DNA of 64,000 nucleotides from Actinomycetes bacterium. GTDB taxonomy: Bacteria > Actinomycetota > Acidimicrobiia > Acidimicrobiales > JAMCPL01. A program made the translations under genes and the position numbers. Location of the stretch: the NCBI GenBank assembly GCA_021841005.1, contig JAKBVZ010000010.1, positions 6,302 to 70,301 on the forward strand. The letters run 5' to 3'. Below, piece after piece: positions 789 through 48,910 of this stretch; position 1 is the first letter of the stretch; each line of letters opens with the position of its first letter. Below the pieces are notes generated by a model. It saw only the letters and a program-made list of their open reading frames with translations. It had not been told where the DNA came from and did not search any database.

Positions 789-820
789 TGCACGGGCTGC
801 GGCATAGTGGCCGCAGCAGA
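789..820. repeat. Solo copy of the CACTAT-loop hairpin element, inverted orientation, no flanking duplication
   Basis: tgcacgg-GCTGCGGC-ATAGTG-GCCGCAGC-aga is the reverse complement of the cores at 33476-33510 and 36246-36280. It lies between convergent genes. Confidence 0.85.
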
Positions 821-1696: not shown

Positions 1697-2713
1697 ATGC
1701 CTCAGATAGTGCGTCTGGAGTACAGTACTGATAGTAACATGGAAACCACACCCGAACCGCACTTGCCCTTCTCCTCTCCCACTCCATCGGCTGCAACGCT
1801 GCACGTGCCACCTGTCCATGTGCGGGGACTCACCAAGAAGTTCCGTAACGGTGTCGTAGCGGTAAACGGTCTGGACCTGAAGGTCGAAGCAGGTCAGGTA
1901 TTCGGACTCCTCGGCCTCAACGGCGCAGGAAAGACCACTACCCTGAGGATACTCCTCGGCTTGGTACGCCCATCGAGCGGCACTGTGCACATTTTTGGCC
2001 ATCCGGTCACTCCCGGTTCCTCGGTCCTCGGTCGAGTGGGGTCTGTAGTGGATACCCCTGGATTCGTGCCACACCTCACAGGACTGCAAAATCTCAGGAC
2101 ATACTGGGAAGCGGTTGGGCAGGACCGCCGGTCGCAGGCAATTGATGATGCTGTGAAGATGGCCAACCTGGAAGGAGCCATCGATAGAGAGGTCCGTAGC
2201 TACTCATTTGGCATGCGCCAGCGACTCGGAATAGCCAGGGCGCTACTCGGCAACCCACCCTTGCTGATACTGGACGAGCCGACTACCGGACTCGATCCCA
2301 AGCAAGTACGAGAGGTGCGGTCGCTTATACGCATACTGTCCCAGCAGGGCAAGACCATCCTGCTCTCATCGCACCTCCTTGGCGAGGTGGAGCAGATCTG
2401 CTCGCACGCCGCCGTAATCCATCATGGCAAGCTAATGGCAAGCGGCTCACTGGCAGACCTCACCAAGGCAGGCACGGCGCTCTACCTCGAAGTCGACAAC
2501 ATCTCTGCAGCAATGACCGTACTCCGCTCTACGGTAGGCGTCACAGATGTGCGTCAGGAGAGCGATGGAATACTTTTGGAAGTGGCCGAGCGGATGGAGC
2601 GCGAAACCATACCCAGGGTCCTCGTCGCCGCCAATATAGGGATAAGGGCCATCCTGCCAAGAAGAAGGCTGGAGGATGCATTCCTTGGAATGATAGAGGA
2701 ACAGGACGTGTGA
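1697..2713 (+). CDS. ABC transporter ATP-binding protein
   Basis: Walker A GLNGAGKTT, signature SFGMRQRL and Walker B LLILDEPT are present. An alternative start lies at 1739. Confidence 0.9.
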   Translation: MPQIVRLEYSTDSNMETTPEPHLPFSSPTPSAATLHVPPVHVRGLTKKFRNGVVAVNGLDLKVEAGQVFGLLGLNGAGKTTTLRILLGLVRPSSGTVHIFGHPVTPGSSVLGRVGSVVDTPGFVPHLTGLQNLRTYWEAVGQDRRSQAIDDAVKMANLEGAIDREVRSYSFGMRQRLGIARALLGNPPLLILDEPTTGLDPKQVREVRSLIRILSQQGKTILLSSHLLGEVEQICSHAAVIHHGKLMASGSLADLTKAGTALYLEVDNISAAMTVLRSTVGVTDVRQESDGILLEVAERMERETIPRVLVAANIGIRAILPRRRLEDAFLGMIEEQDV

Positions 2714-2789
2714 CCGCGGGATCCGCTGCGGCCACTATGTCGCTGCCCGTGTTCCTAGGAATGGTAGAGGAGATGCACGCGTGACCCGC
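2681..2789 (+). repeat. Degenerate hairpin element (2716-2751) flanked by a diverged ~35-bp direct duplication of the ABC ATPase stop / permease start junction
   Basis: 2681-2715 and 2752-2786 match at 28/35 positions (period 71). The core GCTGCGGC-CACTAT-GTCGCTGC has two stem mismatches. Confidence 0.75.
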
Positions 2790-3863
2790 CAGAGTGGTAG
2801 TTCGCAGAATGGTCATCCGGATGATCCTTCACGTACGACCCCAAAGGTGGTACCCAGAGGATGCACGCCAGCGGGCAGTATGTCGCAGCCGGTACGGCAG
2901 AGGAAGCTTGCCACTCTCCGGAAGATTGCGAGCGGCTGGTCACGGATGACCACCTTGTGGAGAATATACACAGTTCCCTCCTCCATTCCGCGTGCTGCCT
3001 CCGGCGTGCCGGCTCACTTATCCAGAAGGGCATTCCTCCCTGAAACAGCAAGCCTTATCCGAACCGAAATTGAAAAGCAACTCCCAAGACCCCGCACCTG
3101 GCTTACCTTGGTATTTATGGCCTTTATTCCTTTCCTGATAACAGTTGCATTTGCCTTGGGAGGCACTGCGCATACGAGCCAGCCGTCAATCGCCGGTGAT
3201 TTCTTGCTCGTAGCAACCAGATCCGGGCTAGACATGCCGCTGGCAACTCTGGATGCGACAGCTCCTTTCCTACTGGTGGTGGCAGTTTCACTTTTCCTTG
3301 GCGAAGCCATCACCTCCGAAACGGGGTGGGGGTTTCTCAGGGCCCTCCTGTCGAAACCCGTATCCAGAAGTCGCCTATTGCTTTCCAAGGCCTTAACGGG
3401 AATAGCCCTGTCCGCCATCGCCTGCTTGGTGGTTGCGCTCTTCGGATTGATTGCGGGCGTAGTGGCATTCGGGTGGCATCCGGTCGTGACTCCCAGTGGT
3501 ATCACGTTCAGCCAAGGGGCCACCCTACTCAAGTTGTCCGTCGCCACCGTCTATACGATGTGGTCACTGGCATCCATCGGATCTTTCTCGCTGCTGGTTT
3601 CGACCGTAACGGACTCGACAATAGGAGCAGTAGCATCGGGAATCGGCTTGGCAATAGTCTCTGAGATCCTTGATGGGATACCAGCACTTGGGCAACTCAG
3701 GGTGGTGTTGCCCACTCACTACATGCTTGCCTGGGGAGAGCTGTTTCTCCAGCCGGCCAATTACAACCCCATGCTCATAGGTACCGGCGTCCAGTTGCCC
3801 TACGTCATCGTTTTCTGTACATTGGCATGGTGGTGGTTCACACGGAAGGACATCCTGAGCTGA
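2781..3863 (+). CDS. ABC-2 type transporter permease
   Basis: Multi-pass hydrophobic protein directly downstream of the ATPase. The start is uncertain: GTG 2781 sits in a GTGA stop/start motif that is duplicated from the ATPase 3' end. Confidence 0.7.
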   Translation: MTRQSGSSQNGHPDDPSRTTPKVVPRGCTPAGSMSQPVRQRKLATLRKIASGWSRMTTLWRIYTVPSSIPRAASGVPAHLSRRAFLPETASLIRTEIEKQLPRPRTWLTLVFMAFIPFLITVAFALGGTAHTSQPSIAGDFLLVATRSGLDMPLATLDATAPFLLVVAVSLFLGEAITSETGWGFLRALLSKPVSRSRLLLSKALTGIALSAIACLVVALFGLIAGVVAFGWHPVVTPSGITFSQGATLLKLSVATVYTMWSLASIGSFSLLVSTVTDSTIGAVASGIGLAIVSEILDGIPALGQLRVVLPTHYMLAWGELFLQPANYNPMLIGTGVQLPYVIVFCTLAWWWFTRKDILS

Positions 3864-5774: not shown

Positions 5775-7640
5775 ATGTCGGGCGAAAATACCACTTCACT
5801 GCTGACTGATCGCTACGAGCTGACGATGCTGGATGCAGCAATCAAGTCAGGCATAATCGGCAGGAAAGCGATATTCGAGGTGTTTGCCAGATCACTGCCT
5901 CCTGGAAGGCGTTTTGGCATCCTGTGTGGAACCGGACGCCTTATAAAGCTGCTCGAAAGATTCCGGTTTGTGGACGCTGATCTCAAGGCTATAGAGGGCA
6001 TCGTCTCTCAACAGACCATAGAGCATCTGAAAGGATGGCGGTTCTCTGGAACAGTGAGAGCTTATTCCGAAGGGGAGTGCTACTTCGCCGATTCACCGGT
6101 ACTTACCGTCGAGGCCACCTACGGTGATGCGCAACTGGTGGAAACTATAATCCTGTCGGTACTGAATCACGACTCAGCCATAGCCTCTACTGCAATTCGC
6201 ATGAGCCTGGCTGCAGGTAATCGCCGGCTCATAGAGATGGGCTCTAGGCGTACTCACGAATATGCTGCAGTTGCTGCCGCACGAGCCGCATATATCGGAG
6301 GGTTCCATGCTACGGCCAACCTCGAAGCCGGCCGTCGATACGGTATACCTACCGCAGGCACCTCAGCCCACTCCTTTACGCTAGCATTTCCTACCGAAAA
6401 AGAAGCATTCAAGGCGCAACTGGAAGCGACCAGCGGACCTATTACCGCTCTGGTGGACACATACGAAATGGAAGACGCCATCAGGACAGCAGCCGAAATA
6501 GCAGGAGATCGCCTGGGAGCCATAAGAATCGACTCGGGCGATCTCGTAAAACAGTCAAGACTGGCGCGCTTGATCCTTGACGGCCTGCACCTGCATAATA
6601 CCCAGATTATATGCACGGGAGACCTGGATGAGTACAAAATCGAGGAATTGAGCAATGCGCCGGTGGACACCCTGGGTATTGGCACAGCGCTTGTCACCGG
6701 CTCAGGATACCCCACGGCAAACTTCATCTACAAGCTCGTGGCCGTGGAGAACCCAAACGGGCAGATGATCCCGGTGGCAAAGCTCTCTCCGGGAGGAAAG
6801 GCCACTGTAGGCGGGCGCAAGCATCCAGCACGCATGTATGACGCTCGAGGAACGGCAATAGGGGAGTACATAGGTACCTCGCCACTAGACACTACACAAG
6901 CCGGCCCGTCCAGGCCGCTCCAAACCGAATTGATGGTACATGGCGAAGCCGTGCTCCAGGACGATATTGATCAGGCGCGTGCCAGATGCAGGCAATCGGT
7001 CGAAGAGCTTGGCTTAGCCGCTCGTGATATATCGCCTGGCCAAGCCGCCATAACAGTGCAAAGGTTGCCAAAAAGAGCGCTGCTCGTGATAGACGTACAG
7101 AACGATTTCTGCGAAGGTGGCTCCCTGGCCGTGGAAGGAGGCCATGGAGTCGCACAAAGACTCGCAGGCATCATTGGACAGGGTCACCGGACCACCACGG
7201 GAATATATGACTATGTCATAGCGACACGTGACTATCACGAGAATCCGGAAGGCCATTTCGCCTCCAACCCCGATTATCGTGATACCTGGCCTCCGCACTG
7301 TGTGATCGGGACATCCGGAGCAGAACTCGAATCCGCACTCACAGGAATTGTTTTCGACGCCATATTCGACAAAGGGCGTTTCCTGCCTGCCTACTCAGGC
7401 TTCGAAGGAGCAGAAACCACAACTGGCATGTCGCTGGAGCAATGGCTGGCGGACCATGAGATCGGTGCGGTGGATGTTGCCGGGATCGCCACGGACTACT
7501 GCGTCAGGGCCACGGTGCTCGACGCGCGAAAAGCGGGCATTGGAGTCAGGGTGCTTGCCGATCTCTGCGCGGGAGTAAATCCCGCAACTTCCGAGGAAGC
7601 TATGCATGAGATGAGCGATGCAGGAGCAGTGATCGCGTAA
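5775..7640 (+). CDS. pncB/pncA: Fusion protein: nicotinate phosphoribosyltransferase (N-terminal) plus nicotinamidase (C-terminal)
   Basis: Residues 1 to about 430 are NAPRTase-like (LTDRYELTMLDA). From about nt 7060 there is an isochorismatase/nicotinamidase domain with ALLVIDVQNDFC and the catalytic Cys motif IATDYCV. Confidence 0.85.
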   Translation: MSGENTTSLLTDRYELTMLDAAIKSGIIGRKAIFEVFARSLPPGRRFGILCGTGRLIKLLERFRFVDADLKAIEGIVSQQTIEHLKGWRFSGTVRAYSEGECYFADSPVLTVEATYGDAQLVETIILSVLNHDSAIASTAIRMSLAAGNRRLIEMGSRRTHEYAAVAAARAAYIGGFHATANLEAGRRYGIPTAGTSAHSFTLAFPTEKEAFKAQLEATSGPITALVDTYEMEDAIRTAAEIAGDRLGAIRIDSGDLVKQSRLARLILDGLHLHNTQIICTGDLDEYKIEELSNAPVDTLGIGTALVTGSGYPTANFIYKLVAVENPNGQMIPVAKLSPGGKATVGGRKHPARMYDARGTAIGEYIGTSPLDTTQAGPSRPLQTELMVHGEAVLQDDIDQARARCRQSVEELGLAARDISPGQAAITVQRLPKRALLVIDVQNDFCEGGSLAVEGGHGVAQRLAGIIGQGHRTTTGIYDYVIATRDYHENPEGHFASNPDYRDTWPPHCVIGTSGAELESALTGIVFDAIFDKGRFLPAYSGFEGAETTTGMSLEQWLADHEIGAVDVAGIATDYCVRATVLDARKAGIGVRVLADLCAGVNPATSEEAMHEMSDAGAVIA

Positions 7641-7864: not shown

Positions 7865-8668
7865 ATGCCGCGATCGGTATACTGCGCCATGGCCTTGGCC
7901 GCCGTAGCGCTGGCGGTATCGGCATGCAGTTCCACTACATCCACGCACCCACGGGTAGGGAACACCGGAACGGCCACCACATCATATGCGTCCTCACATA
8001 CTTCTTCGCATCCCAAGACTTCCTCCACGTCACACGGATTCCTGACGCCTCCATCGACATCAACGGGTGCAATATCCGGAGGCAGCACAATTTCGGGAAC
8101 CGTCCAGGGCAACCTACACTATTCGTTCCAGGTACTGAGGGTCGTTCGAGGCACGTCAGCACAGATCAAATTGGACACCCTGGGATGGCCCAGCGTAAGG
8201 GGGGTAGGAGAAGTCATGGCCGACCCCATACCGTCAGGATCAGTGTATTTAGTGGTCGATTTTGTCCAGACCACCTCATCGGGAAAAGCCGCCCTCCTGC
8301 CCGACAATCCCAACGTATCTACATTCCCGGTCGTACTGCTTGTTTCTCCATCGGTCATGCACGTAGGCGATACGGGACAACCTGGTCTATGGTGTAAAGC
8401 CACTGGCCCGGTAGGTGCGGGAATCGGCGTATTCTCCGAAAACATCACTGGCCATACCTGCGCTGAAGAGAACTTTCAGGCCGCCAACAGCACGTCCACC
8501 ACTACGCTATCCGGCGAAGCAAGCAACCACGTCGTGGTGGCATGGGCCGTACCCGAGGCCGTACCGACCAGCGCGTTGCGCCTTGGCTGGGATACGGGGA
8601 CCTTCCATCTCAACGCTCACTGGTCACAATCGGTCCCGCTCACCGGCCATGCGCACCTCACGATCTGA
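7865..8668 (+). CDS. Hypothetical lipoprotein
   Basis: ATG 7865 gives MPRSVYCAMALAAVALAVSAC, a signal peptide with a lipobox. An upstream ATG at 7724 has a strong GGAGG RBS, so the start is ambiguous. Confidence 0.55.
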   Translation: MPRSVYCAMALAAVALAVSACSSTTSTHPRVGNTGTATTSYASSHTSSHPKTSSTSHGFLTPPSTSTGAISGGSTISGTVQGNLHYSFQVLRVVRGTSAQIKLDTLGWPSVRGVGEVMADPIPSGSVYLVVDFVQTTSSGKAALLPDNPNVSTFPVVLLVSPSVMHVGDTGQPGLWCKATGPVGAGIGVFSENITGHTCAEENFQAANSTSTTTLSGEASNHVVVAWAVPEAVPTSALRLGWDTGTFHLNAHWSQSVPLTGHAHLTI

Positions 8669-8730
8669 CCGACTTGCACTCCCAGCTTGCATTCCCAGCT
8701 TTCACACCTCGCGGAAAGGCCACTTACCTG

Positions 8731-8770
8731 GATGAAATCGGCAGGATGAAGATGAAATCGGCAGGATGAA
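8731..8770. repeat. Tandem duplication, 20 bp x2
   Basis: GATGAAATCGGCAGGATGAA occurs twice, in the intergenic region. Confidence 0.9.
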
Positions 8771-8798
8771 CCAGTCTACCAATTGCGATCCAGTGGCT

Positions 8799-9557
8799 CT
8801 ATGCTGGACGGACAGTTATGCCACGCGCCGACAAGTAAGCTTTGACCTCGCCGATGCTTATCTCTTTACGATGGAATACCGAGGCAGCGAGCAATCCGTC
8901 TGCACCTCCCTCGAGCGCACCCTGAGCAAAGTGCTCCAGCGAACCGACACCACCTGAAGCTATGACAGGGATGTCCACGCGCGACGTGATCTCACTCGTC
9001 AACTCCAGGTCGAATCCTTCCTTGGTCCCATCTTTGTCCATAGAGGTCACGAGCAGCTCTCCTGCCCCAAGCTCTACGGCTCGGTCCACCCACTCGAGAA
9101 CATCCATCCCGGTAGGATTCCTACCGCCATGGGTATAGACCTCCCATCCCCATGGCGACCGCCTGGCATCCACTGCAACGACTACACACTGCGACCCTAG
9201 CTCGCCAGCGATCTCGCTGATCAATACGGGGCGTGAAATACCTGCAGTATTCACGGTAACCTTGTCGGCGCCAGCCCTCAGTATGCCTTTGGCATCTTCG
9301 AGCGTCCTTATCCCGCCTCCCACGGTAAGAGGGATAAACAGCATATCCGCCGCGCGAGCCACCACATCCACCATGATGGAACGCCTTTCCGAAGATGCCG
9401 TAATATCAAGAAACACGACCTCATCTGCACCTTCAGAATCGTAGCGCAGTGCAAGCTCCACCGGGTCTCCGGCATCCACCAGGTCGAGGAACTGCACGCC
9501 CTTTTTTACCCTGCCCTCGTCCACATCGAGACATGGGATGACCCGGACAGTTCTCAT
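8799..9557 (-). CDS. hisF: Imidazole glycerol phosphate synthase cyclase subunit HisF
   Basis: [21 protein letters not shown]-terminus, full-length HisF similarity and his operon context. Confidence 0.95.
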
Positions 9558-9564
9558 GCTATGG

Positions 9565-10320
9565 CTATTCCTCGCATATCTTCATTGCTTCCTCCAGCGG
9601 TAGAGATCTGTTTGCAATGGCTCTGCCCGAGATCACTCCCTCCACTCCTCTACCTCCCACCGAGAGCCCAGCCAGAGTGCCCAGATCGGACACATTCCTC
9701 ACTCCTCCTGCCACGATCACCGGATGGCTGGACATCTCCAGAACGTAGCGTAGCCCGACCGTATCAGGCCCCTCCATAGTGCCGTCCCTGTCGATGGCAG
9801 TTACCACCAGTGCCGCAAGCGGTACCTCGTTGTACGTCTCCACGGCCCCTCCCAGATCCATCGCGGCATCCTCCTCCCACCCCGATACACAGAGAGAAAG
9901 GGTACCGCCTTCGAGCCCGCCGGCAATTCCCTTGTAATCGAGACTGATTGCCACGCGACCCGGGAAGCCGCGGGCAATCTCAATCGTGGTACCAGGATCG
10001 AGAAGTGCGGTAGTACCGAGCACCGCTCTGGCAACTCCAACGGAAAGCATCCACTCCACGTCACCCGCCGTGCGGATGCCGCCACCCACCTGTACCGGCA
10101 CACCACATTTGCGGGTTATCTCGACCACTACATCCCTGTTGACAGGCAACCCCGTCCTTGCGCCATCCAGGTCGACAACATGCAGTCTTCGAGCACCCCT
10201 GCTCACGTATCCGAGCGCCAATTGCACTGGATCACCAAAGTCGGTCACATTGCCATACTCCCCCTTGAACAGGCGAACTGCTGTCCCGCCATGTATATCG
10301 ACAGCCGGATATAGCTTCAT
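9565..10320 (-). CDS. hisA: ProFAR isomerase HisA (PriA-type in actinobacteria)
   Basis: [12 protein letters not shown] start at 10320 (the ORF is open to 10374), (beta/alpha)8 HisA motifs and operon position. Confidence 0.9.
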
Positions 10321-10969: not shown

Positions 10970-11580
10970 AGCACCCCTTTTGTGGATGGCACCATATCGC
11001 CTTCTACCTTCGTAGCATCATGCAGGCACCTCGCCAACGCCTTGAATGAAGCCTCTAGAACATGATGGGGGCTGTTCCATCGTTCTGCCCAGACATGAAC
11101 CGTAATCTTGGCAGCAGTCACAAACGCACGAAAGAACTCCTCGGCAAGCTGGGGGTAAAATGGTGGCTCCCCTATACCTGGAATGTCCACAGAGAATGAG
11201 ATACCCCACGCGAGATACGGCCTCCCCGACAAGTCCAGCGCCACTTCCACCAAGGCTTCGTCCAAAGGCAAAGCCAGTGAGGCAAACCTCCTCATGCCCG
11301 TTTTCTCTCCTACAGCCTGGGCGAAGGACTCCCCTAAGGCTATGCCCACATCCTCCACTGTGTGGTGTGTATCGACTGCGAGATCGCCCGATGCCGTGAC
11401 ATGAAGATCGAACGACGAATGCCGTCCCAGTTGTGCGAGCATATGATCAAAAAAAGGTATGCCGGTGGCCACTTCTGACCGGCCACTTCCGTCCAAATTG
11501 ATGGACACCGCCACCGCAGTCTCCGAAGTTTCCCGCTTAACGGTTGCTGTCCTGTCGTTTGTTGTTCTGTCACTTACCAT
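10966..11580 (-). CDS. hisB: Imidazoleglycerol-phosphate dehydratase HisB
   Basis: IGPD motifs (FFDHML, HHTVED, HH..EA.FKA) and operon position. Confidence 0.95.
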   Translation of the reverse strand: MVSDRTTNDRTATVKRETSETAVAVSINLDGSGRSEVATGIPFFDHMLAQLGRHSSFDLHVTASGDLAVDTHHTVEDVGIALGESFAQAVGEKTGMRRFASLALPLDEALVEVALDLSGRPYLAWGISFSVDIPGIGEPPFYPQLAEEFFRAFVTAAKITVHVWAERWNSPHHVLEASFKALARCLHDATKVEGDMVPSTKGVL

Positions 11581-14068
11581 TCAAAATCTCTCCCAGTGCG
11601 CCAAGAAATCGATCATTCTCCTCCCTGCTACCGACGGTCACTCTGAAACATCCCTCCAAACCGGGAGCTTCAGAGAAATCACGAATCAGGATGGAACGTG
11701 CCAGCAATGCATCCATCAGCTGCACCGACTCGGTGTCCAGGGGACGGAACAGCAGGAAATTGGCCTGCGATGGCCATACAGCTACCGGCAAATCCGCCAA
11801 CCTTGCAAACATTCTATCTCTCTCGCGCGTGATCGCACTCACACGATCCTGCAATTCACCAACGTGTTCGAGCGCCACTAGGCCAACCTCCTGCGAGATG
11901 GCGTCAATGTGGTACGGCAGGGCAACCAGATCGCATGCCTGCACTACGGAAGGATCTGCGATCATGTAGCCGATTCGCATGGAAGCAAGTGCCCACACCT
12001 TGGAGAAGGTCCGCACAACGACCAGTCTTTCCTGTCCCTTGCAATTGATCGCCGCCGGATCCAGAACAGCATCCGACGTAAACTCCCCATAGGCGGCATC
12101 CAGTATCACCAGTCCCGAAGAGAGCCGTAGCACCTCTTCTACGACCTCCATCGGCTCCAACATCCCAGTTGGGTTGTTGGGAGAGCAAAGGAATATCACA
12201 TTGGGATCGTAGCTCCTGATGGCATCACGCATACGGTCCATATCCATGTCAAAGTTGTCCCGCCGCATTATGGAATGCACCAATGTCTGAGTAATAGCGG
12301 CTATCCTACTGTGCATCTGGTAGGTAGGTTCGAAGACCAGCGCACCACGACCATGACCACCGTAGGCCAGCAGCAGGCATTGGAGCACCTCGTTGGAACC
12401 ACGCCCGACAAAGATGTTTTCCGGATCCGTACCTATCCAATCCGCCAAGCCGGCTCTCAGGCCGGCGGCACGGCGATCCGGATACCTGTTGGTCTCCAAC
12501 GATGCGATCCGGCTGGTGATCTCCTCCTTCCACCCGTCCGGAACCGTAAAGGGATACTCGTTTGCATTGATCTTCACCTCGACTCGAGGCTGCGGGGAGG
12601 AGTAACCGGAAAAGGAAAGCAGATCATCCCTTATGCGAACGCCGGCTACTGACGATGATTCGCTGCCTGGAATATGAGACGACGGGGTGCCATCGAGTCT
12701 CATCTGCACCGCAAGCGCATGGGTGGGAAGCCCTTCAAACCCCGCGATGGTGGCGACCGGGCCAGCAAACTTCCTCGCAGCACCCGCCGATACATGGACA
12801 GAGTGCATCACCTTGGAAAAGTCGCGAGCACCAAGCGCTGATGCAAACCGAGCCGTCCTTGCAGTAGGTAGAACATGGTTGGGCCCCGCAAGGTAGTCCC
12901 CGAAGGCTGCCGCCGAATACGGACCGGTGAATATCGCCCCCGCCGAGCGCAGCCGGGGCAACATTGCTTCCACGCTGCCAGCATCGTCGCTAAGGATTTC
13001 CAGGTGTTCCGGAGCGATCGTGTTCGACACTGCCACGGCCTCATCCAGGCCACTTACCAGTATCGAATAGCCATTACCTGAAAGGGTGGCCTCGATGTCA
13101 GCTCTCCGTGGCGAATCCGATACCAGCCTGCCAAGAGCTTCTTCGACTCTTTCCAGCAAAGGCAGCGACCACGATACAAGCCACGACATTCCATAAGGCC
13201 CGTGCTCTGCCTGGACCGCCAGATCGGCGGCCGCCCATTCCGGGTTGACTGATTCATCCGCGATAATGACTACCTCCGAGGGACCGGCAAAAGCACTGGG
13301 GATACCCGTGATACCGGCAACCTGGCGCTTGGCCTCCGACACATAGATGTTTCCCGGACCGGTTATCACGTCGACCGGCTGGATGGTTTCAGTACCGTAA
13401 GCCATGGCCGCAATCGCCTGCGCGCCACCCACTGCGTATATCTCTCCTATACCTGCAATAGCCGCTGCCGCCAAAGTCTCGGGCGCCGGCAACCCGTCAG
13501 GCCCAGGCGGAGAGCATAGTACGATATTTTCCACTCCTGCGCTCATGGCTGCTGCTGCGCACATGAGAACGCTGGAGGGGTAACGTGCCCTCCCACCCGG
13601 AGCATATATGCCGGCCCTCTCTACGGGGCTGCGCCAGGTACGCACCTCTATCCCCGCGTCCACGTACATATCACCAAGATGGACAGCGTTGCCGGGAGTG
13701 CCCGTATCCCGGCGTGAGTCCACTGGGTGGATGCCTTCCGCAGCTGCCTCATGGCGGTGGTAGTCGAGTAGGCGGCTATAGGCCAGGGTAAGTGCCTGCA
13801 CCAGTTCGGCCGGCGCTGCCACGAGCACATTACCTGCGATCTCGTGAGGAACTTCGAGTTGCGCCGGTACCACCCCGTCGAATTGCCCGGACAGTTCCAG
13901 AAGCGCCTTATCCCCCCCCTCTCGTACCCTGCTCAAGATTTCCGCCACCTTGCCTGCGGTATCGCCAATAGAACCGCCCGCTGGCAGTGACGTAAGAGAT
14001 GGAAGCACGCCAGGAATATCTCCGGCGCTGGTAGCGACAAGGTTCAGACGAGTAAGCAATGAGGGCAT
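11570..14068 (-). CDS. hisD/hisC: Fused histidinol dehydrogenase (N-terminal) and histidinol-phosphate aminotransferase (C-terminal)
   Basis: A single uninterrupted ORF. The HisD part starts at MPSLLTRL (ATG 14068), with a linker [18 protein letters not shown] near 12640-12700. The HisC part follows ([30 protein letters not shown]). The ORF is open up to 14203, but that extension is unlikely to be coding. Confidence 0.85.
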
Positions 14069-14162
14069 ATACAACAATGGTAGCCGGAACGCGATGGTGG
14101 CCGGAACAGGCAATGCCCGGAACGCTCCGGAACGCTCCGGAACAGGATGCCATCCCGAACGC

Positions 14163-14191
14163 GTGAAAGTGCCCACAAGGGGCACTTTCAC
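14163..14191. promoter_or_regulatory. Perfect 12-bp-stem palindrome in the his operon leader
   Basis: GTGAAAGTGCCC-acaag-GGGCACTTTCAC, about 95 nt upstream of the proposed hisD start. Confidence 0.3.
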
Positions 14192-14382
14192 TTGACGCGT
14201 CAACGGGCGGCGGTTCCCGTATGACGCTCACTTGGGAACCTGGTGGCGGGAACCGGTTCCAAAAGACATTATAGCATCCCCGCCAGCCGCTGTCGAACAA
14301 ATACGATCAACGATTACAAAATATTGACCTAATGGTCAGTTGCAGGCATGGCTTCTTATGCAATACTGGTAACCTGATGCCC

Positions 14383-14484
14383 GGAGACCGCCAACCGCGC
14401 TATCACTGCAATAGCCGGCAAAGGAAAGACAGTGCTCCTGCATCGGCCTGTGCAGGAGACCGCCAACCGCGCTATCACTGCAAT
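14383..14484 (+). repeat. Perfect 30-bp direct repeat pair separated by a 42-bp unique insert (period 72)
   Basis: GGAGACCGCCAACCGCGCTATCACTGCAAT occurs at 14383-14412 and 14455-14484. The insert ends in CCTGTGCA. Confidence 0.9.
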
Positions 14485-18397: not shown

Positions 18398-19428
18398 GAG
18401 CGCTCCCAGAATCCAGGGCCGACCGGCTGGTCATAAGGTTGCTGCGCCCTGAGATACCCCTCAGAATCGATCATCAGCGGCAGTTGCGGCAAGGGCCGCG
18501 GGGCTGGTCCGAACACCGGCTGGGCACCGTCCAGCACGTCGAACATAGACTGGTGGCAAGGGCAGAGCAACTGCTGGGTCTGCTCCTGGTAAAGACCCAC
18601 CGGGCATCCTGCATGTGTGCAGACTTTTGAATACGCCACATACCCCTTGGGGGTCCAGGTCTCTCGCCCAGCCTTCGTGGTGAACGGGCTGGTGGAGGCC
18701 CTGAGCAGTACCGTCTGGTCCATGGCATTGCCCTCGTATCCGGGCGGGAACACCGTAATGATTCCACCAACCTCGAGATCATCTTCCTTGATCTTCCTGC
18801 CATGAATCGTTACAAGATATGACCCCTTTCTCCAGTTGGTCTTGTCAAGGGCCAACTTGGGCAATGGACCCAACGATCTGATTACCGGGAACGCAATGAC
18901 TACGCCAAGAATGCCTGCAGCGCCAGCCAGCATCTTCCCGAGGAACCCCCTGCGGCGCATCACGAGCTTGCCCCGATCTATGACTGCGGCCGCCATCTGC
19001 TCACGCTCGACATCGCTGGAACGCATATCATGGCGCTCCTCTACAAACGGCCCTCGCGGCAATAAATACTTTCCCCATGCAGCCAGTGCCGCACCTATGG
19101 CCAGCAACCCTATGCCCAACGTCAGCCCCTCCAACTGGGGTTGCCCGCCCTGCCAGTAAACCGCACCATATCCCGCAAAGCCCAGTGCCGCCAGCGCAAT
19201 CAGGAATGCTATCCATCTCTCCGTATGCCTGACGTTCTTGGCCGCAGGCCTAAGATGCGGATCATCCAGGGCCACTAGAGGCAATGGCGAGTCCGACACC
19301 TCACCATGATTCTCCGGTATTGGCCTATCGCCGCTCGCATGGCCCGGTACGTGGACTGGCTCATGAATCCGGCCACCGTCCGATTGCACACCCGTTTCCC
19401 TGTTCATCTGCGACAATCTCCTATCCAA
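18394..19428 (-). CDS. qcrA: Cytochrome bc1 complex Rieske iron-sulfur subunit QcrA
   Basis: Rieske motifs CTHAGCP and CPCHQS. It overlaps the qcrB start. Confidence 0.9.
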   Translation of the reverse strand: MDRRLSQMNRETGVQSDGGRIHEPVHVPGHASGDRPIPENHGEVSDSPLPLVALDDPHLRPAAKNVRHTERWIAFLIALAALGFAGYGAVYWQGGQPQLEGLTLGIGLLAIGAALAAWGKYLLPRGPFVEERHDMRSSDVEREQMAAAVIDRGKLVMRRRGFLGKMLAGAAGILGVVIAFPVIRSLGPLPKLALDKTNWRKGSYLVTIHGRKIKEDDLEVGGIITVFPPGYEGNAMDQTVLLRASTSPFTTKAGRETWTPKGYVAYSKVCTHAGCPVGLYQEQTQQLLCPCHQSMFDVLDGAQPVFGPAPRPLPQLPLMIDSEGYLRAQQPYDQPVGPGFWERS

Positions 19429-19474
19429 GAGGCAGTTCCCACTATCGACAATCTTCCACTCCAGACATCGGCGT

Positions 19475-20482
19475 TCATCTGCGATGATCTCCTATCCAGA
19501 AGGCGGCCAGCATCAGCACGCCAACTCCCACCAGTAAGGCGATGAACCCTTCCGCCACTGGACCCACTCCGCCAAGCGCCAGCCCTCCCCTATTGACAGG
19601 ATGCTGTATGTAACGAGTCACGTATGCATCTATGTCAGCCAGTTCCTTATTCGACAACTGTTTCGGGCTGAACCTGGGCATATTGCCAGGCCCCGTACGT
19701 GCCGCCTCTGCGACCTGGGTCTTGGTCGCCAGATGCAGCGTGGGAGCGAAGTACCCTGATCCAAGCGCATCGCCGGATCCGGTAATTGTATGGCAAGCCG
19801 CGCAGTTGAGCGCAAACAGCGACATACCTTGGCTCACGCTGACGTTTTGAAGGTTCACCTTAGGTATGCCAGGACCATTGACCTTTGACAGCGATGCCAC
19901 GAAATCGGCTATCTCCTGGGACTGCTTCGTCGTATATCTCGAAGGCTTGACGGCAGGCTGAGACGTCAGGTTTTCCAGCGGCATCCAGCCATTGGACACC
20001 CATAGATCCACGGTACCGGCACCCAGCCCCACCAGACTCGGAGCCCTGGAAGTACCGTATGCGTTGGCCCCATGGCAAGATGAACAGGTCGCCTCGAAAA
20101 GAACCCTGCCGGCAGCTTCATAGGACTTTCTAATCGTCTGGTAGGTGATCGGGCTACTACCACCGCTCGAAGTCACGCCACCTGGATTTGAACCACCTGG
20201 AGTCGCACTGCTCGAAGTCGCACCCTTGCCACCTGCCGGTTTACCACCTGCAAGCCAACCTGCCCGCTGCTTATCGCTTGGGCGCGCCTGCACATTAGAA
20301 GTCTTAGAATCACCCAAGGCTGAACCTGGCTTGTTGTGCGATGCTACACCAGGCGATACGGCAGCCATCGACAGAAGACCCCAAAGCGCAACCCCCAGAA
20401 CCACCATAACCGGGATGATCTTATGTATATTGCGTGTTGCCAGGCTTCCAGCCCTATCGTGGTCTCTCCGGTCCTTCCGCAT
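19475..20482 (-). CDS. qcrC: Dihaem cytochrome c subunit QcrC
   Basis: Two CxxCH haem-binding motifs (CSSCH, CAACH) and a C-terminal TM anchor. Confidence 0.9.
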   Translation of the reverse strand: MRKDRRDHDRAGSLATRNIHKIIPVMVVLGVALWGLLSMAAVSPGVASHNKPGSALGDSKTSNVQARPSDKQRAGWLAGGKPAGGKGATSSSATPGGSNPGGVTSSGGSSPITYQTIRKSYEAAGRVLFEATCSSCHGANAYGTSRAPSLVGLGAGTVDLWVSNGWMPLENLTSQPAVKPSRYTTKQSQEIADFVASLSKVNGPGIPKVNLQNVSVSQGMSLFALNCAACHTITGSGDALGSGYFAPTLHLATKTQVAEAARTGPGNMPRFSPKQLSNKELADIDAYVTRYIQHPVNRGGLALGGVGPVAEGFIALLVGVGVLMLAAFWIGDHRR

Positions 20483-21411: not shown

Positions 21412-24051
21412 TCAGCCGCGCGTTTCCAGATGGCTCAGCAACTTCGGCAACGTACCTGAATACACTACATAAAGTGCCTTGGTAGGCCGCGTCATCGCTA
21501 CATACAAGCTGCGCAGTCCCATGGGGTACTCATCTATGACACCTGCTGGATCTACGACAACCACTGTATCGAATTCCAGACCATTGGCCATCGCTGCGGG
21601 CACCACACTCAGCCCGGATGCCACGCCGGTACCACCGCTAACTTGCGTGACATCCCTTCCTACATTGCGAAGCGCTCCGGCAAGATCCTCGCAGAGTGAG
21701 GCAGGCGCAATCAAGGCGCATGTGCCCGCCGACTCCGGAGTGTATATATCTCCGATAACGCCAGCCACGCCTATCCCTATCTCCCCCTCCACCCTGATTG
21801 CGGCAGGACGTACACCCGCCACGCGAAGCGTTCTCGGGACAGTGCGCTCCACCATATACGCAGCAAGGACGGGTTCGGCTGCTTCCAGTATCTCTCGCGG
21901 TGTACGGTAACTCACCGTCAGCTCAACGACATCAATGGTCCTCTTCAAATGCATGTGAGCAAGCACATCGTTCCACGATGAAGGAGGGTCGGGACCCACT
22001 GCCTGCGCTATGTCCCCGGCAAGCGTCATGTCCCCCGAGAGGGAGCGCCGCGCTATGACACGCAACTCCATCGCAGAAAGCCCTTGGGCCTCATCGACCA
22101 CTATATAGCCATACTTCCTGGCTCGATCGTAGTCAGGGTGGCCACTAGCTGTGTAATGACCTGCCGGGCCGTGACGGTCATATGCACCAGGTCCACCGAC
22201 ACCAGCATGGGGCTTCCTCCTGGCTGCATTGCCGTCGAGTGGACCAAGCAGCGTCCTAGCCTCATCCAGCAAGGCTACATCCTCCTGCGACCATCGTGTA
22301 CGCGAGGAACTCGTGTACCCCTCCGTGCCCGTGCTGGCGTCTCCACATCGTCGTCTCTCCAGCAGCGCCAGTTCCTCTGGATGGAAGATCCCTTTCCCAG
22401 CTGCAGTAATAAGGACACTGGAACTGAAGAGATCGTAGAGGAACTCTTCTGCTGCCAGCCGAGGCCACATCCTGTCAAGAGCTATCTGCAGTTCCGGCAC
22501 TCTGAGCAAGCGACGGATCGTCCTGGCATCCAGCTCTTCCTGCGACACCAGTCCCTCTTCTTCGATCTCGGCTGGGAACGCTGTATCCGTACCTTCCACC
22601 CAAAGCCCACCAGACGCCTGATCGTCAGACGCCTGATCGTCAGCGCCGTCACTGCTTGGAGCGCTTCGGGCATCCGGAAAACCTTGGGAACCTTGGGAAC
22701 CTTGGGAACCTTGGGAACCTTGGGAACCTTGGGAACCTTGGGAACCTTGGGAACCTTGGGAACCTTGGGAACCTTCCATCTGCATGAGCATCGGACCATC
22801 CGTCTCCTGCTCAATGCAGGGCTCGATCTGGTCGCTGGAGATCCACCCCTCCGCAGCCTTATCAGGACGGACTTGCCTGACCCGGCTTGCTCTTTCCTTG
22901 TACTGTTCGAGCAGGTACCTGCATACCAGTGTTTCCAGGTACCGCCTCTTCACGTTGTGCGTTCCCTTGCGTGCTTTCACCTCTGCCACGAATCCAGCGC
23001 TTTGCGCAGCAGGGAGAACAAGCATGGTGGAACCGAAGGGTATCTCGCAATCATGCCGGAGGGGGCGCTGCCGGGTCCTCACGGCCCTACGTAGCAAAAC
23101 CGCCATACGAGCATCACCCTTGACCTTGGCGGTCATAAAATTATCCTTGTAGCTTGCCCGTATACCCCGTACAAGCCCCTGAACCGACGAGAGTGTGACG
23201 CCGCTCTCCCCCAGAGAAGGTAGTACGTGCTCTATATACCTCAAGAACACCGGGTTTGGGCCAACCACCAGCACGCCCTGAGTTTCCAGAGGAAACCGAT
23301 GAGTATAAAGAAGGTAAGCAGCCCTGTGCAATGCTACAGCCGTTTTACCGGTACCCGGCCCTCCCTGAACAACCAGAACTCCGCGGATGGGAGCCCTGAT
23401 TATTTCGTCCTGCTCGCCCTGTATGGTGGAGATCATGTCGCTCATACGTGAATCCCTTGGTCGTTCCAGCGCCGCAAGCAGGGCCCCAGGTGGCCCTGGA
23501 TCCACAACCTCCTCGCCGGCTCCGTTACCACCTTGCAACTCTCCGGCATCCGTCTCGAGCGAAAATCTTTCATCCTCGATAGATAGAACCTTCCGAGAGG
23601 CTACTTCTACGTGACGCCTCAGCACCAGCCCCATGGGATCCCGTCCAGTGGCGCGATAGAACGGCTCAGCGACGGGGGCTCTCCAATCGACCACCAATGG
23701 GTCCAAATTCTCATCCAGTATGCCCAAACGTCCGATATGGTAGGTTGCCTTGCCATCCTGTTCGCCTGACACATCGATGCGACCGAACAGAAGTGGCCTG
23801 TTGCCCACATCCGTCCGGGACATGGTACGCAAAATAGACTCAACCGCAGCATCACGTTCGAAACGCCCCTGGTGGGTACCTCCTCTATCCTGGCGGTACA
23901 GCCCAACCAGGCGCGATCTGGCACCAGCCGTCAGCTCTGCAAGCCTACGGTAGGCATTATCCAGATGAGCCTGTTCCAGAGCTATTTCTTGCGCCAAGGA
24001 TAGTTGCCGTGAAGAACCAGGAATGGTTTCACCCGTGCCAACGCCCTCCAT
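21412..24051 (-). CDS. helD: HelD-like UvrD-family helicase (RNA polymerase-associated)
   Basis: HelD N-terminal signature VVDWRAPVAEPFYRAT, Walker A GGPGTGKT and a UvrD C-terminal domain. It contains a (GSQ)10 insertion. Confidence 0.8.
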   Translation of the reverse strand: MEGVGTGETIPGSSRQLSLAQEIALEQAHLDNAYRRLAELTAGARSRLVGLYRQDRGGTHQGRFERDAAVESILRTMSRTDVGNRPLLFGRIDVSGEQDGKATYHIGRLGILDENLDPLVVDWRAPVAEPFYRATGRDPMGLVLRRHVEVASRKVLSIEDERFSLETDAGELQGGNGAGEEVVDPGPPGALLAALERPRDSRMSDMISTIQGEQDEIIRAPIRGVLVVQGGPGTGKTAVALHRAAYLLYTHRFPLETQGVLVVGPNPVFLRYIEHVLPSLGESGVTLSSVQGLVRGIRASYKDNFMTAKVKGDARMAVLLRRAVRTRQRPLRHDCEIPFGSTMLVLPAAQSAGFVAEVKARKGTHNVKRRYLETLVCRYLLEQYKERASRVRQVRPDKAAEGWISSDQIEPCIEQETDGPMLMQMEGSQGSQGSQGSQGSQGSQGSQGSQGSQGSQGFPDARSAPSSDGADDQASDDQASGGLWVEGTDTAFPAEIEEEGLVSQEELDARTIRRLLRVPELQIALDRMWPRLAAEEFLYDLFSSSVLITAAGKGIFHPEELALLERRRCGDASTGTEGYTSSSRTRWSQEDVALLDEARTLLGPLDGNAARRKPHAGVGGPGAYDRHGPAGHYTASGHPDYDRARKYGYIVVDEAQGLSAMELRVIARRSLSGDMTLAGDIAQAVGPDPPSSWNDVLAHMHLKRTIDVVELTVSYRTPREILEAAEPVLAAYMVERTVPRTLRVAGVRPAAIRVEGEIGIGVAGVIGDIYTPESAGTCALIAPASLCEDLAGALRNVGRDVTQVSGGTGVASGLSVVPAAMANGLEFDTVVVVDPAGVIDEYPMGLRSLYVAMTRPTKALYVVYSGTLPKLLSHLETRG
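22611..22640. repeat. In-frame tandem duplication, 15 bp x2, in helD (DDQAS x2)
   Basis: CAGACGCCTGATCGT occurs twice. Confidence 0.9.
22681..22776. repeat. Perfect 9-bp microsatellite (GGAACCTTG, ~10 units) in frame in helD, encoding (GSQ)10
   Basis: Nine perfect units at 22687-22767 plus partial flanking units. Confidence 0.95.
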
Positions 24052-25553: not shown

Positions 25554-26654
25554 ATGATCGGCATACTACTGATGGCGCACGGAACTCCAGCTGATTCTCA
25601 GGAAATACCGTCATTTCTCGAGTCCATACGCTCGCACAAGCCGTCGCAACCGGAACTGGACGACCTAGAGAAACGTTACCAAGCGATAGGCGGGATGTCT
25701 CCCCTGGCTCAGCTCACGGAAGTACACCGCGATAACCTCGTCCAAGTACTGGACGACAAGTATCCGGGCCGGTTTGCGGTAGCGGTAGGAATGAAGCATG
25801 CCAAGCCATCCATAGAAGACGGTCTGGCTTCACTGGAGCAGGCAGGTGCGGCAAGTATAATAGGATTGGCCCTTGCTCCCCACTACTCACGGGCTAGCAT
25901 AGGCGACTATGAGAACCGCGTACGTGCAGCAATGCGCCTTGACCTCAGCACCGACTCTCGTACAACTTTCCGCATGGTGAAGTCATGGCATCTCGCTCCA
26001 GGACTTATAGAACTCTGGTCTGAACGGATCAAAGATGCAATCGTCTCGCTGCAAAGTGTGATAGAGAAAGAAACGGGGGGCAAATCGGCAAGGCAGGAGG
26101 GGTCGGCAGGGCAAGAACAATTAGCGGAACAGGAGAAGCCGGCAGGCCAGGAAAGGCCAGAAAAGTCGGGTGCCGGTATGCCGGATGACCCTGGATCGGC
26201 TGGCAACGACTCCGCGATACATGTGATCTTTACTGCGCACAGCCTCCCGGCACGCTTGACCGACCAAGGCGATCCTTATGCTGGGCAGGTCAATGAAACT
26301 GCTGCCGCCATAGCCAAGCATGCCAGTCTCGAGCACTGGTCCGTAGCATGGCAAAGCGCCCCCATGCACATCAGAGAACCTTGGCTGGAGCCTGACGTGA
26401 AGGATGCTATAAGTGCTCTGGCAGATACCGGGTGCAAGGCCGTGGCCATCTGCCCGGTAGGGTTCGTATCAGATCATCTGGAGACTCTCTACGATCTCGA
26501 CATAGTCGCCCGAGAGTCGGCGAATCTCGGAGGTATCGCTTTCGACCGGTGCAAGTCTCTCGACCACGACATGCGACTGGCCGAAGTGCTGGCAAGCATC
26601 GTCTACATGGAAATGAATGGGAGTGAGGAGATGGGAATGAGGAGATGGGAATGA
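25554..26654 (+). CDS. hemH: Ferrochelatase (coproporphyrin ferrochelatase type)
   Basis: Ferrochelatase motifs (LLMAHGTP, FTAHSLP, CPVGFVSDHLETLYD). A low-complexity insert of about 40 aa is present. Confidence 0.9.
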   Translation: MIGILLMAHGTPADSQEIPSFLESIRSHKPSQPELDDLEKRYQAIGGMSPLAQLTEVHRDNLVQVLDDKYPGRFAVAVGMKHAKPSIEDGLASLEQAGAASIIGLALAPHYSRASIGDYENRVRAAMRLDLSTDSRTTFRMVKSWHLAPGLIELWSERIKDAIVSLQSVIEKETGGKSARQEGSAGQEQLAEQEKPAGQERPEKSGAGMPDDPGSAGNDSAIHVIFTAHSLPARLTDQGDPYAGQVNETAAAIAKHASLEHWSVAWQSAPMHIREPWLEPDVKDAISALADTGCKAVAICPVGFVSDHLETLYDLDIVARESANLGGIAFDRCKSLDHDMRLAEVLASIVYMEMNGSEEMGMRRWE

Positions 26655-26657
26655 GGA
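26625..26657. repeat. 14-bp tandem duplication (x2.4) spanning the hemH stop and the hemY RBS/start
   Basis: GAGGAGATGGGAAT at 26625-26638 and 26639-26652, then GAGGA. Confidence 0.9.
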
Positions 26658-30742: not shown

Positions 30743-30850
30743 ATGTCATACGCTCCAGTTACAGGTCGTTACAACGTTCTAGATACGCTACGGCCACTAT
30801 GCCGTAGCCCGGGGGAGATGCCATACGCTCCAGTTACAGGTCGTTACAAC
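30743..30850 (+). repeat. Variant hairpin element (30776-30817) flanked by a 33-bp direct duplication (32/33 identical, period 75)
   Basis: The duplicated sequence is ATG(T/C)CATACGCTCCAGTTACAGGTCGTTACAAC. The hairpin GCTACGGC-CACTAT-GCCGTAGC carries a compensatory stem pair. Confidence 0.9.
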
Positions 30851-33384: not shown

Positions 33385-33459
33385 CGGGAAGTAGCGCAGT
33401 TTGGTCAGCGCGCAGCGTTTGGGACGCTGAGGCCGGGGGTTCGAATCCCCCCTTCCCGA
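33385..33459 (+). tRNA. tRNA-Pro (anticodon TGG)
   Basis: Hand-folded cloverleaf: acceptor CGGGAAG/CTTCCCG, anticodon stem CAGCG/CGCTG with loop TTTGGGA, T arm GGGGG-TTCGAAT-CCCCC; 75 nt. Confidence 0.9.
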
Positions 33460-33547
33460 CCGCTACATCATCGTCAGTCCGCTGCGGCCACTATGCCGCA
33501 GCTCGTGCATGTTCGAATCCCCCCTTCCCGACCGCTACATCATCGTC
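33439..33547 (+). repeat. 35-bp hairpin element (33476-33510) flanked by a perfect 37-bp duplication of the tRNA-Pro 3' end plus trailer
   Basis: GTTCGAATCCCCCCTTCCCGACCGCTACATCATCGTC occurs at 33439-33475 and 33511-33547. The insert is AGTCCGCTGCGGCCACTATGCCGCAGCTCGTGCAT. Confidence 0.95.
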
Positions 33548-40770: not shown

Positions 40771-40986
40771 CTATACCGCATCCAATCACCGTCTCCAAGC
40801 ACCTTGAATGCAGGCATGAGTGGAAACGACCGTTGCTGATTTCCTCCCGTTCCCCGTAATCTCACCTGCCGAGCATGAGTGGAAACGACCATCCTCTGGA
40901 ATGGGTCTCCGGTAATTGAACACTATCCAACGAATACGTAAGCAATGTGGAACAGGCTCAGCACAAGTGATGTATCATATAATGCC

Positions 40987-48760: not shown

Positions 48761-48871
48761 CGGTACAACCGCACCAGGCATTACGGGCAAGGCCACATAC
48801 CGATTGCAATTGGCTATGACGGCACGATAGAACTTCGGTACAACCGCACCAGGCATTACAGGCAAGGCCAC
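48761..48871 (+). repeat. 36-bp direct repeat pair (35/36 identical) separated by a 39-bp unique insert (period 75)
   Basis: CGGTACAACCGCACCAGGCATTAC(G/A)GGCAAGGCCAC occurs at 48761-48796 and 48836-48871. Confidence 0.9.
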
Positions 48872-48876
48872 CGCAC

Positions 48877-48910
48877 GACAGGACCTCATTGACAGGACCT
48901 CATTGACAGG
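48877..48910. repeat. 14-bp tandem duplication (x2.4) spanning the stop codon of the PHP-domain gene
   Basis: GACAGGACCTCATT at 48877-48890 and 48891-48904, then GACAGG. The minus-strand stop is at 48900-48902. Confidence 0.9.

Follow-up and report, generated by a model that had tools for sequence, protein, structure and literature searches.

What becomes of two genes that share their stop and start codons when DNA is inserted exactly at the overlap? The question is raised by an ABC-2 transporter operon in a 64-kb stretch of DNA from an Acidimicrobiales bacterium (contig JAKBVZ010000010.1; the whole stretch is called the window hereafter, and all window-wide counts refer to it). As judged from the comparisons with orthologous operons given below, positions 2681-2789 very probably represent the product of an old insertion, now fixed, in which a lineage-specific hairpin mini-element of ~35 nt entered a 4-nt GTGA stop/start overlap. 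About 35 nt of the target were duplicated, one copy retaining the stop codon and the other the ribosome-binding region and the start.

The ABC transporter ATPase gene occupies positions 1697-2713 of the plus strand, as taken from the open reading frame (ORF) list and from alignment with orthologues, and the Pfam domain ABC_tran was found on the same gene in the sequences L009, L010 and L022. It ends in FLGMIEEQDV and a TGA stop at 2711-2713, inside the upstream copy of a 35-nt direct repeat. This copy, X1 (2681-2715, TTCCTTGGAATGATAGAGGAACAGGACGTGTGACC), and the downstream copy, X2 (2752-2786, TTCCTAGGAATGGTAGAGGAGATGCACGCGTGACC), both on the plus strand, are identical at 28 of 35 positions and start 71 nt apart. 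The sequence GTGA lies at the equivalent position in each of them, 2710-2713 and 2781-2784. X2 carries a Shine-Dalgarno-like AGAGGAG and the GTG at 2781, and its translation, FLGMVEEMHA followed by a stop, echoes the end of the ATPase. The permease ORF, counted from the ancestral start position, runs from 2781 to 3863 (plus strand), with a conserved core from about 3022 (RRAFLPE); which start is in use is uncertain. The initial annotation had described an ATPase terminus with its stop in the first repeat, a decayed echo with the GTG opening the permease ORF in the second, and an aligned GTGA in both, and the ORF, its translation and the sequence bear out each of these statements. None of 20 Markov-1 shuffles of the window produced a repeat of at least 28/35 at offsets of 40-150, and the repeat structure observed is real.

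The 36 nt between both copies (2716-2751, plus strand; core TCCGCTGCGGCCACTATGTCGCTGCCCGTG) are a decayed copy of a hairpin element, recovered by nhmmer with E = 1.3e-8. They differ from the hairpin consensus CTGCGGCCACTATGCCGCAGCCCGTG by 2 mismatches in 26, and their local alignment to the hairpin scores 50 versus a null of 11.9 +/- 2.3. The fuller consensus, ..TCYGCTGCGGCCACTATGCCGCAGCCCGTGCA, comprises an 8-bp stem and a 6-nt loop; this internal stem, GCTGCGGC/GCCGCAGC, is the only inverted repeat of the element, its ends AGKTC... and ...GTGCA not being complementary. Two stem mismatches had been noted for the junction copy, and the comparison upholds them: both substitutions fall in the 3' arm (GCCGCAGC to GTCGCTGC), and the copy folds no better than shuffled sequences (z = -0.07), whereas intact copies reach z values of about -2 to -3. 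No canonical intrinsic terminator is formed: no terminator-like site was found within 2550-3100, and the element is followed by variable target sequence. In an Rfam scan only tRNAs reached the gathering score, and no CRISPR-repeat family matched significantly, the best match to CRISPR-DR16 giving 12.3 bits versus a threshold of 35.

The window contains five clear copies of the 32-35-nt hairpin, namely the decayed one at the junction and four intact ones at 789-820 (minus strand), 30776-30817, 33476-33510 and 36246-36280. Duplications of 33-37 nt flank four of the five. The copy at 789-820 lies between two convergent genes, and a target duplication was looked for around it and not found (flank similarity p = 0.31). 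A second, strongly degenerate hairpin-like stretch is placed at 2871-2893 (plus strand), within the N-terminal extension of about 225 nt of the permease ORF; it matches the hairpin at 19/23 positions and scores 26 versus a null 99th percentile of 22, with an nhmmer E-value of only 0.42. Apart from this single stretch, no further 72-nt units could be resolved in the extension after GTG 2781.

The direction of the change can be read from the orthologous junctions. In the closest different species (L006/L007), which is syntenic with the window at about 80% nucleotide identity, the ATPase (8106-9080) and the permease (9077-9934) overlap by the 4 nt ATGA, with neither hairpin nor duplication (junction sequence ...GGAATGATAGAGGAACAGGACACATGACCAGCCAAACT...), as expected by the initial annotation for operons without the element. 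The orthologous junction of L008 is a 1-nt overlap, TAGTG, and that of L032 a 10-nt gap; a spacer of about 70 nt is present in none of these orthologues. The window sequence downstream of X2, GTGACCCGCCAGAGT (MTRQS), is homologous to L006 ATGACCAGCCAAACT (MTSQT), and since X2 continues into the N-terminus of the permease in this manner, GTG 2781 is the ancestral start position. Relative to the L006 junction, 5 of 35 positions are changed in the still-coding X1 and 9 of 35 in X2, whose former coding part is decaying. Three derived bases with respect to L006, including the G of GTG, are common to both copies, while private changes number at least five in X2, which is no longer coding, and at least one in X1, which is. 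The element-free overlapping orthologue, the homology beyond X2 and the shared derived bases together argue that an insertion with target duplication separated what had been a GTGA overlap, and by the same comparison this event is later than the divergence from the L006 lineage. The proposal that the ancestral genes overlapped by 4 nt is thereby supported, as is the notion that both gene ends survived, X1 keeping the ATPase stop and X2 the ancestral GTG. All three same-species assemblies carry the insertion, which the sister species does not have, and the two repeat copies are 80% identical versus 97-100% at the other hairpin loci; fixation and repeat divergence agree with its description as an older copy.

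The junction is one of a set of loci with the same repeat-insert-repeat architecture. When direct repeats of the window are considered at offsets of 30-300, all non-tandem ones fall at 69-75. The one at 69 (43582-43678, 28-nt repeat) was rejected as an insertion, being a native motif of the B12-binding domain of methylmalonyl-CoA mutase (EQIALAARD/EQIASAARD); after its removal seven loci remain, with offsets of 71, 72 or 75 only. Likewise, every non-tandem match of at least 28/35 at offsets of 40-150 in the real window falls at 71, 72 or 75. Four of the seven carry the hairpin. These are the ABC junction itself (2681, plus strand; 35-nt duplication, 36-nt insert, offset 71); tRNA-Pro (33439-33547, plus strand), with perfect 37-nt repeats, a 35-nt insert and an offset of 72, where the 3' end of the tRNA is duplicated; purF (36209-36317, plus strand coordinates, the gene being on the minus strand), with the same dimensions, perfect 37-nt repeats, a 35-nt insert and an offset of 72, adding 24 codons in frame in a loop; and 30743-30850 (plus strand), with 33-nt repeats (32/33), a 42-nt insert and an offset of 75. 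The hairpin of the last locus, at 30776, shows a compensating change in both stem arms (G:C to A:T). The other three inserts are unrelated to the hairpin and do not fold. They lie at the qcrC/qcrA junction (19402-19504, minus strand; 32-nt repeats, 28/32, around a unique 39-nt insert, offset 71), at 48761-48871 (plus strand; 36-nt repeats, 35/36, unique 39-nt insert, offset 75) and in the intergenic region at 14383-14484 (plus strand; perfect 30-nt repeats, or 35 nt with one indel, unique insert of 42-36 nt, offset 72). The insert at 14413-14454 ends in CCTGTGCA, like the hairpin element. Comparison of the unique inserts with the hairpin and with each other gave p = 0.03-0.19, uncorrected, and their relatedness is not convincing.

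Precise empty sites were found at three loci besides the ABC junction. At tRNA-Pro, strain GCA_027390695.1 (L013) has a single 37-mer, and L014, L015 and L017 have repeat, element and repeat; the filled allele thus differs by a 35-nt insert plus a 37-nt duplication. Collapse of the assembly at this site is unlikely, since L013 retains the purF insertion with equally perfect 37-nt repeats. At 48761, L025 and L026 have one copy. In the relatives L018-L021, qcrC and qcrA overlap by the 4 nt ATGA, and this junction is, on that comparison, a second 4-nt overlap that was split likewise. In addition, the PurF of a relative lacks the 24-residue insert. From these alleles the hairpin family looks recently mobile, with one insertion polymorphic within the species, although the polymorphism at tRNA-Pro could equally be a gain or a repeat-mediated loss.

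Outside the window, L018 and L020 have a 39-nt duplication with a 33-nt insert at an offset of 72; the insert of L018 is unique and does not fold, and it ends AGGTCT...GGTGCA, like the hairpin element. A diverged hairpin copy without duplication occurs in L019/L021. In L001, a metagenome-assembled genome of another member of the Actinomycetota, a hairpin insertion at an offset of 72 keeps the frame of a 668-aa transpeptidase-like protein, within its N-terminal region. There, at 3560-3710, the element is part of a mini-array with a period of 72, made up of 2.5 units in the order repeat, old element, repeat, element and repeat, which shows that repeat-insert units can multiply locally. A scan of GTDB genomes for the 22-mer hairpin core yielded the L001 locus only, the species of the window being evidently outside the collection. 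The same holds for the metagenome scan, in which four matches were discarded as chance, only a 20-mer being matched, and the hairpin was not found in a scan of the viral sequences of IMG/VR. Across the family the inserts measure 33-42 nt and the target duplications 30-39 nt, with 71-75 nt added in total. At the non-junction loci, even the intergenic ones, the total is a multiple of three (72 or 75). Between the upstream repeat and the hairpin core there are 2-8 variable filler bases, which at two loci make a near-palindrome together with the end of the element: the filler GCGGGA of the ABC junction forms a near-palindrome with TCCGC, GCGG(G)ATCCGC, and TCTAGA is formed at 30776.

With these loci at hand, two other histories of the ABC junction can be weighed against an insertion with target duplication. 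That the spacer with its hairpin is ancestral, and was lost in the sister species by a precise deletion between the repeats that recreated the 4-nt overlap, is very unlikely. A deletion should arise easily between perfect 37-nt repeats offset by 72 nt, and the tRNA-Pro polymorphism, as said, could be such a loss; however, the spacer is missing from three independent orthologous operons (L006/L007, L008 and L032), the hairpin family was undetected in 37.6 kb of L006 and L011 and in 12 kb of L008, and the bases derived with respect to L006 are the same in both repeat copies. A history without any mobile element, in which slippage locally duplicated or triplicated the junction in tandem and the middle segment diverged afterwards, can be set aside as the least credible, for the weak resemblance of the qcrC/qcrA middle segment to its flanking repeat (score 19, p = 0.011) is outweighed by the clear membership of 2716-2751 in the hairpin family and its unlikeness to its own flanks (p > 0.9), and by the tRNA-Pro alleles, in which a foreign 35-mer appears between the copies.

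The splitting of an overlap by such an event has a consequence for the reading frames. At both junction loci a 24-codon ORF spans the insertion. At the ABC junction it is VTAGSAAATMSLPVFLGMVEEMHA* (2710-2784, plus strand), whose GTG overlaps the ATPase stop and whose TGA overlaps the permease GTG; at qcrC/qcrA it is MNADVWSGRLSIVGTASWIGDCRR* (19478-19404, minus strand), likewise overlapping the stop of the upstream gene with its first codon and the start of the downstream gene with its last. An offset of 71 is found at these two loci only, the other five loci of the window and those of L018 and L001 having 72 or 75. When a 4-nt overlap is duplicated at an offset congruent to 2 modulo 3, the start of the first copy comes to be in frame with the stop of the second. 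The contrast, 2/2 against 0/7, corresponds by our own arithmetic to a Fisher-type p of about 0.03. The ORF at 2710-2784 may thus act as a relay that passes terminating ribosomes on to the permease start and preserves translational coupling, a proposal with appreciable appeal that nevertheless falls somewhat short of probable. A ribosome would end at the ATPase stop, reinitiate at GTG 2710 and terminate at the TGA overlapping GTG 2781, whence it would enter the permease.

Several observations weigh against the relay and the start that it presupposes. The relay is based on two loci only, and at the local GC content 24 codons in a row without a stop are not unusual. Between GTG 2781 and the conserved core of the permease there are about 225 extra in-frame nucleotides that homologues do not have, and these homologues measure 266-285 aa versus 360 aa when counted from GTG 2781. 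The GC content by codon position of the extension is 0.54/0.65/0.61, versus about 0.62/0.47/0.61 in local genes. Moreover, gene callers disagree on the permease, giving 360, 305 or 209 aa in three assemblies. GTG 2781 is a candidate for the permease start still in use.

As to how the insertions arise, what the alleles show directly is an insertion of 33-42 nt together with a duplication of 30-39 nt, from which we infer staggered joining at target sites about 36 bp apart. The mechanism preferred here, by analogy and tentatively, is integration of the Cas1-Cas2 type acting outside an array. In this reaction each strand of the target would accept one end of a spacer-sized duplex, at phosphodiesters about 36 bp apart, with gap filling to follow; the hairpin would serve as a substrate used again and again, and perhaps a selfish one. 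Owing to their length and perfect identity, the repeats should also permit slippage to remove an insertion precisely. In favour of this mechanism are the heterogeneous, non-folding inserts at three of the seven window loci and in L018. CRISPR arrays of the Mycobacterium tuberculosis type have 36-nt repeats and 35-41-nt spacers, giving a unit of about 72 nt, and Cas1-Cas2 is, to our knowledge, the only enzyme class with a ruler of about 36 bp. Off-target integration by Cas1-Cas2 with repeat-length duplication ('neo-CRISPR') has been reported in Escherichia coli upon over-expression, with 28-nt duplications (Nivala et al. 2018, according to the accounts in bioRxiv 10.1101/148544 and PMC7054753). 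The window family resembles that case in combining a spacer-length insert (33-42 nt) with a repeat-length duplication (30-39 nt) of a non-CRISPR target, in the heterogeneity of the inserts and in its ~72-nt unit, which is that of actinobacterial arrays with 36-nt repeats. It differs in being natural and dense, with seven events in 64 kb of housekeeping DNA, in using mostly one hairpin and in its constrained total length.

Other results count against Cas1-Cas2. No cas gene, CRISPR array or transposase was seen in the window and about 40 kb of further same-species DNA. The same hairpin was inserted repeatedly (four inserts in the window and that of L001), and two hairpin copies, 789-820 and that of L019, have no duplication. 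The unique inserts have no source in the available DNA, and IMG/VR scans of two of them were null. Furthermore, the sum of duplication and insert is far steadier than either part, which no integrase known to us predicts.

The alternative that survives best is a dedicated transposase or integrase of unknown type making staggered cuts of about 36 nt, the non-hairpin inserts being other low-copy members of its family; it is possible, if on the unlikely side. Such an enzyme would suit the conservation of the hairpin core and ends across species, L001 and L019, the copy with the compensating stem change, the constancy of the total added length and the hairpin-like ends of some non-hairpin inserts (CCTGTGCA in 14413-14454 and AGGTCT...GGTGCA in L018). 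However, terminal inverted repeats are missing from the element, a relationship of the unique inserts to the hairpin or to one another cannot be demonstrated from the uncorrected p values above, and no candidate enzyme gene was seen in the window and the same ~40 kb. Target duplications of the IS1634/IS1549 type are long and very variable, and we know of no transposase family with a tight duplication of 32-39 nt. A third explanation takes the loci as repair products, in which staggered nicks leave long overhangs that are filled in, and end-joining captures short filler DNA, often an abundant hairpin oligonucleotide. The heterogeneity of the inserts and the variable 2-8 filler bases point this way, and the fillers near-palindromic with the element end are reminiscent of hairpin-opening footprints. 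This explanation is improbable, since it requires a nuclease that always cuts with a stagger of about 36 nt and leaves the constant total of 72 or 75 nt unexplained; the palindromic fillers, at two loci, could also be chance.

Comparison with described repeats sets the family apart. MIRU elements (mycobacterial interspersed repetitive units) are short (40-100 bp) GC-rich repeats between operon genes of actinobacteria, in which small ORFs overlap the flanking stop and start, according to Delihas 2011 (PMC3184786, citing Supply et al. 1997). This architecture recurs in the relay ORFs at 2710-2784 and 19478-19404, at two of the seven loci only. In MIRU, though, the overlapping ends come from the repeat itself and in the window family from the local target duplication; MIRU forms variable tandem arrays with a 46-101-nt unit in Mycobacterium, whereas here single insertions with a 32-35-nt core occur in Acidimicrobiales; and most copies of the window family lie outside operon junctions. 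By description, then, the two are distinct. REP sequences and REPINs are palindromic units of ~35 nt (range 21-65) with many dispersed, mostly extragenic copies (PMC3184786). The 32-35-nt core, the 8-bp stem and the five clear copies in 64 kb recall them, and the copy at 789-820 is REP-like; on the other hand, four of the five window copies have 33-37-nt duplications, there is a precise empty site, and copies lie within purF and at a tRNA 3' end. REPs are moved by RAYT (Y1) transposases, frequently in pairs (doublets), and their targets are not duplicated.

MITEs are likewise small, non-autonomous mobile repeats with target duplications, and RPEs (Rickettsia palindromic elements) are tolerated in frame inside protein genes (PMC3184786), which the in-frame 72-nt insertion in purF and the in-frame one in the transpeptidase-like gene of L001 resemble. 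The window element differs from MITEs in having an internal 8-bp stem only and no terminal inverted repeats, in duplications of 30-39 nt that equal or exceed the element in length, and in the absence of any insertion sequence from the window. MITEs have terminal inverted repeats and fixed, short duplications (2-10 nt), and RPEs measure 100-150 nt. Casposons are mobile elements inserted by an integrase of the Cas1 family (PMC7786333). Unusually long duplications and insertion at a tRNA 3' end are points of likeness, but the window element is tiny and has no terminal inverted repeats. Casposons measure several kb and carry their own casposase and polymerase with terminal inverted repeats, and their long target duplications (~14-15 nt) are sometimes at tRNA 3' ends. 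Literature searches found no description of elements like those of the window, and the family appears, from these comparisons, to be undescribed and recently active. Among described bacterial elements we are aware of none in which the target duplication (32-39 nt) matches the element itself (33-42 nt) in length, of none with a nearly constant gain of 72 or 75 nt, and of none polymorphic in a wild population.

The window also lies within JGI metagenome contig Ga0373184_0000175, window coordinates being those of the contig minus 6077, and near-identical contigs occur among metagenome-assembled genomes; the names carried by homologues place the organism in the Acidimicrobiales. The surrounding gene content is of the housekeeping kind: fadD-like, rmlA-like, the ABC-2 transporter, fbiA/fbiB-like (CofD, F420 ligase), his genes, qcrCAB and pur genes, among others. 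Two apparent gene fusions are present, one of histidinol dehydrogenase and histidinol-phosphate aminotransferase in a single 877-aa ORF (11570-14203, minus strand), and one of nicotinate phosphoribosyltransferase and an isochorismatase/nicotinamidase in a single 621-aa ORF (5775-7640, plus strand). An apparent strain difference of 114 nt in hisD/hisC was rejected as a run of N in L024. Perfect tandem arrays lie at 22680-22775 (AACCTTGGG x10.7, in the large minus-strand ORF 21412-24051) and at 27644-27692 (AGTGGA x8.2, in ORF 26645-28396), and same-species assemblies vary in length near both, as indicated by alignment breaks. Near the locus at 48761, a 14-nt tandem duplication (48877-48910, GACAGGACCTCATT x2.4) covers the stop codon of a PHP-domain gene (48900-49772, minus strand), L025 and L026 having a single diverged copy. 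Near the 3' end of purF, a 30-nt tandem duplication (35349-35400) yields GTEHAGTNDT GTEHAGT, which is absent from the PurF of the relative. In the sister species, L011 contains at 8627-8935 a short TnpB-like (Cas12f1-like_TNB) gene fragment between whiB and ArsA-like genes; it corresponds to about 30.1-30.9 kb of the window, the site of the hairpin insertion at 30743-30850. Finally, perfect 18-nt direct repeats (GCATGAGTGGAAACGACC) at 40814-40890, with a 41-nt insert and an offset of 59, lie between a 1159-aa ORF and a 3-hydroxyacyl-CoA dehydrogenase gene. They may be a related event with a shorter duplication; for the repeats at 40814/40873 the intergenic region of the relative is too diverged to polarise an insertion.

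The ABC operon thus offers a clean natural example of a 4-nt stop/start overlap that was pulled apart with neither gene broken, and indicates that a MIRU-like relay ORF can arise automatically by duplication of such an overlap. For annotation, it is relevant that the units resemble two-repeat "questionable CRISPRs" and that they lengthen or split gene calls, as with the permease of 360, 305 or 209 aa. If a Cas1-type integrase is responsible, the loci would document in nature that spacers are frequently integrated ectopically and would offer a direct route to study the birth of CRISPR arrays; if another enzyme is, it would be an integrase of a new kind, equipped with a long molecular ruler. More speculatively, and with a rather low likelihood on the present comparisons, a free-living Acidimicrobiales lineage may harbour an active integration system, either ectopic CRISPR adaptation or a novel integrase with a ~36-bp stagger, that scatters spacer-sized DNA in housekeeping regions, always adding 72 or 75 bp, with one hairpin behaving as a self-propagating 'selfish spacer'. 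Were this the case, the long duplications would make the insertions harmless at gene overlaps and tRNA ends, the in-frame totals would make them tolerable within genes and the repeats would make them reversible, and each event would leave a repeat-insert-repeat unit, the natural seed of a CRISPR-like array.

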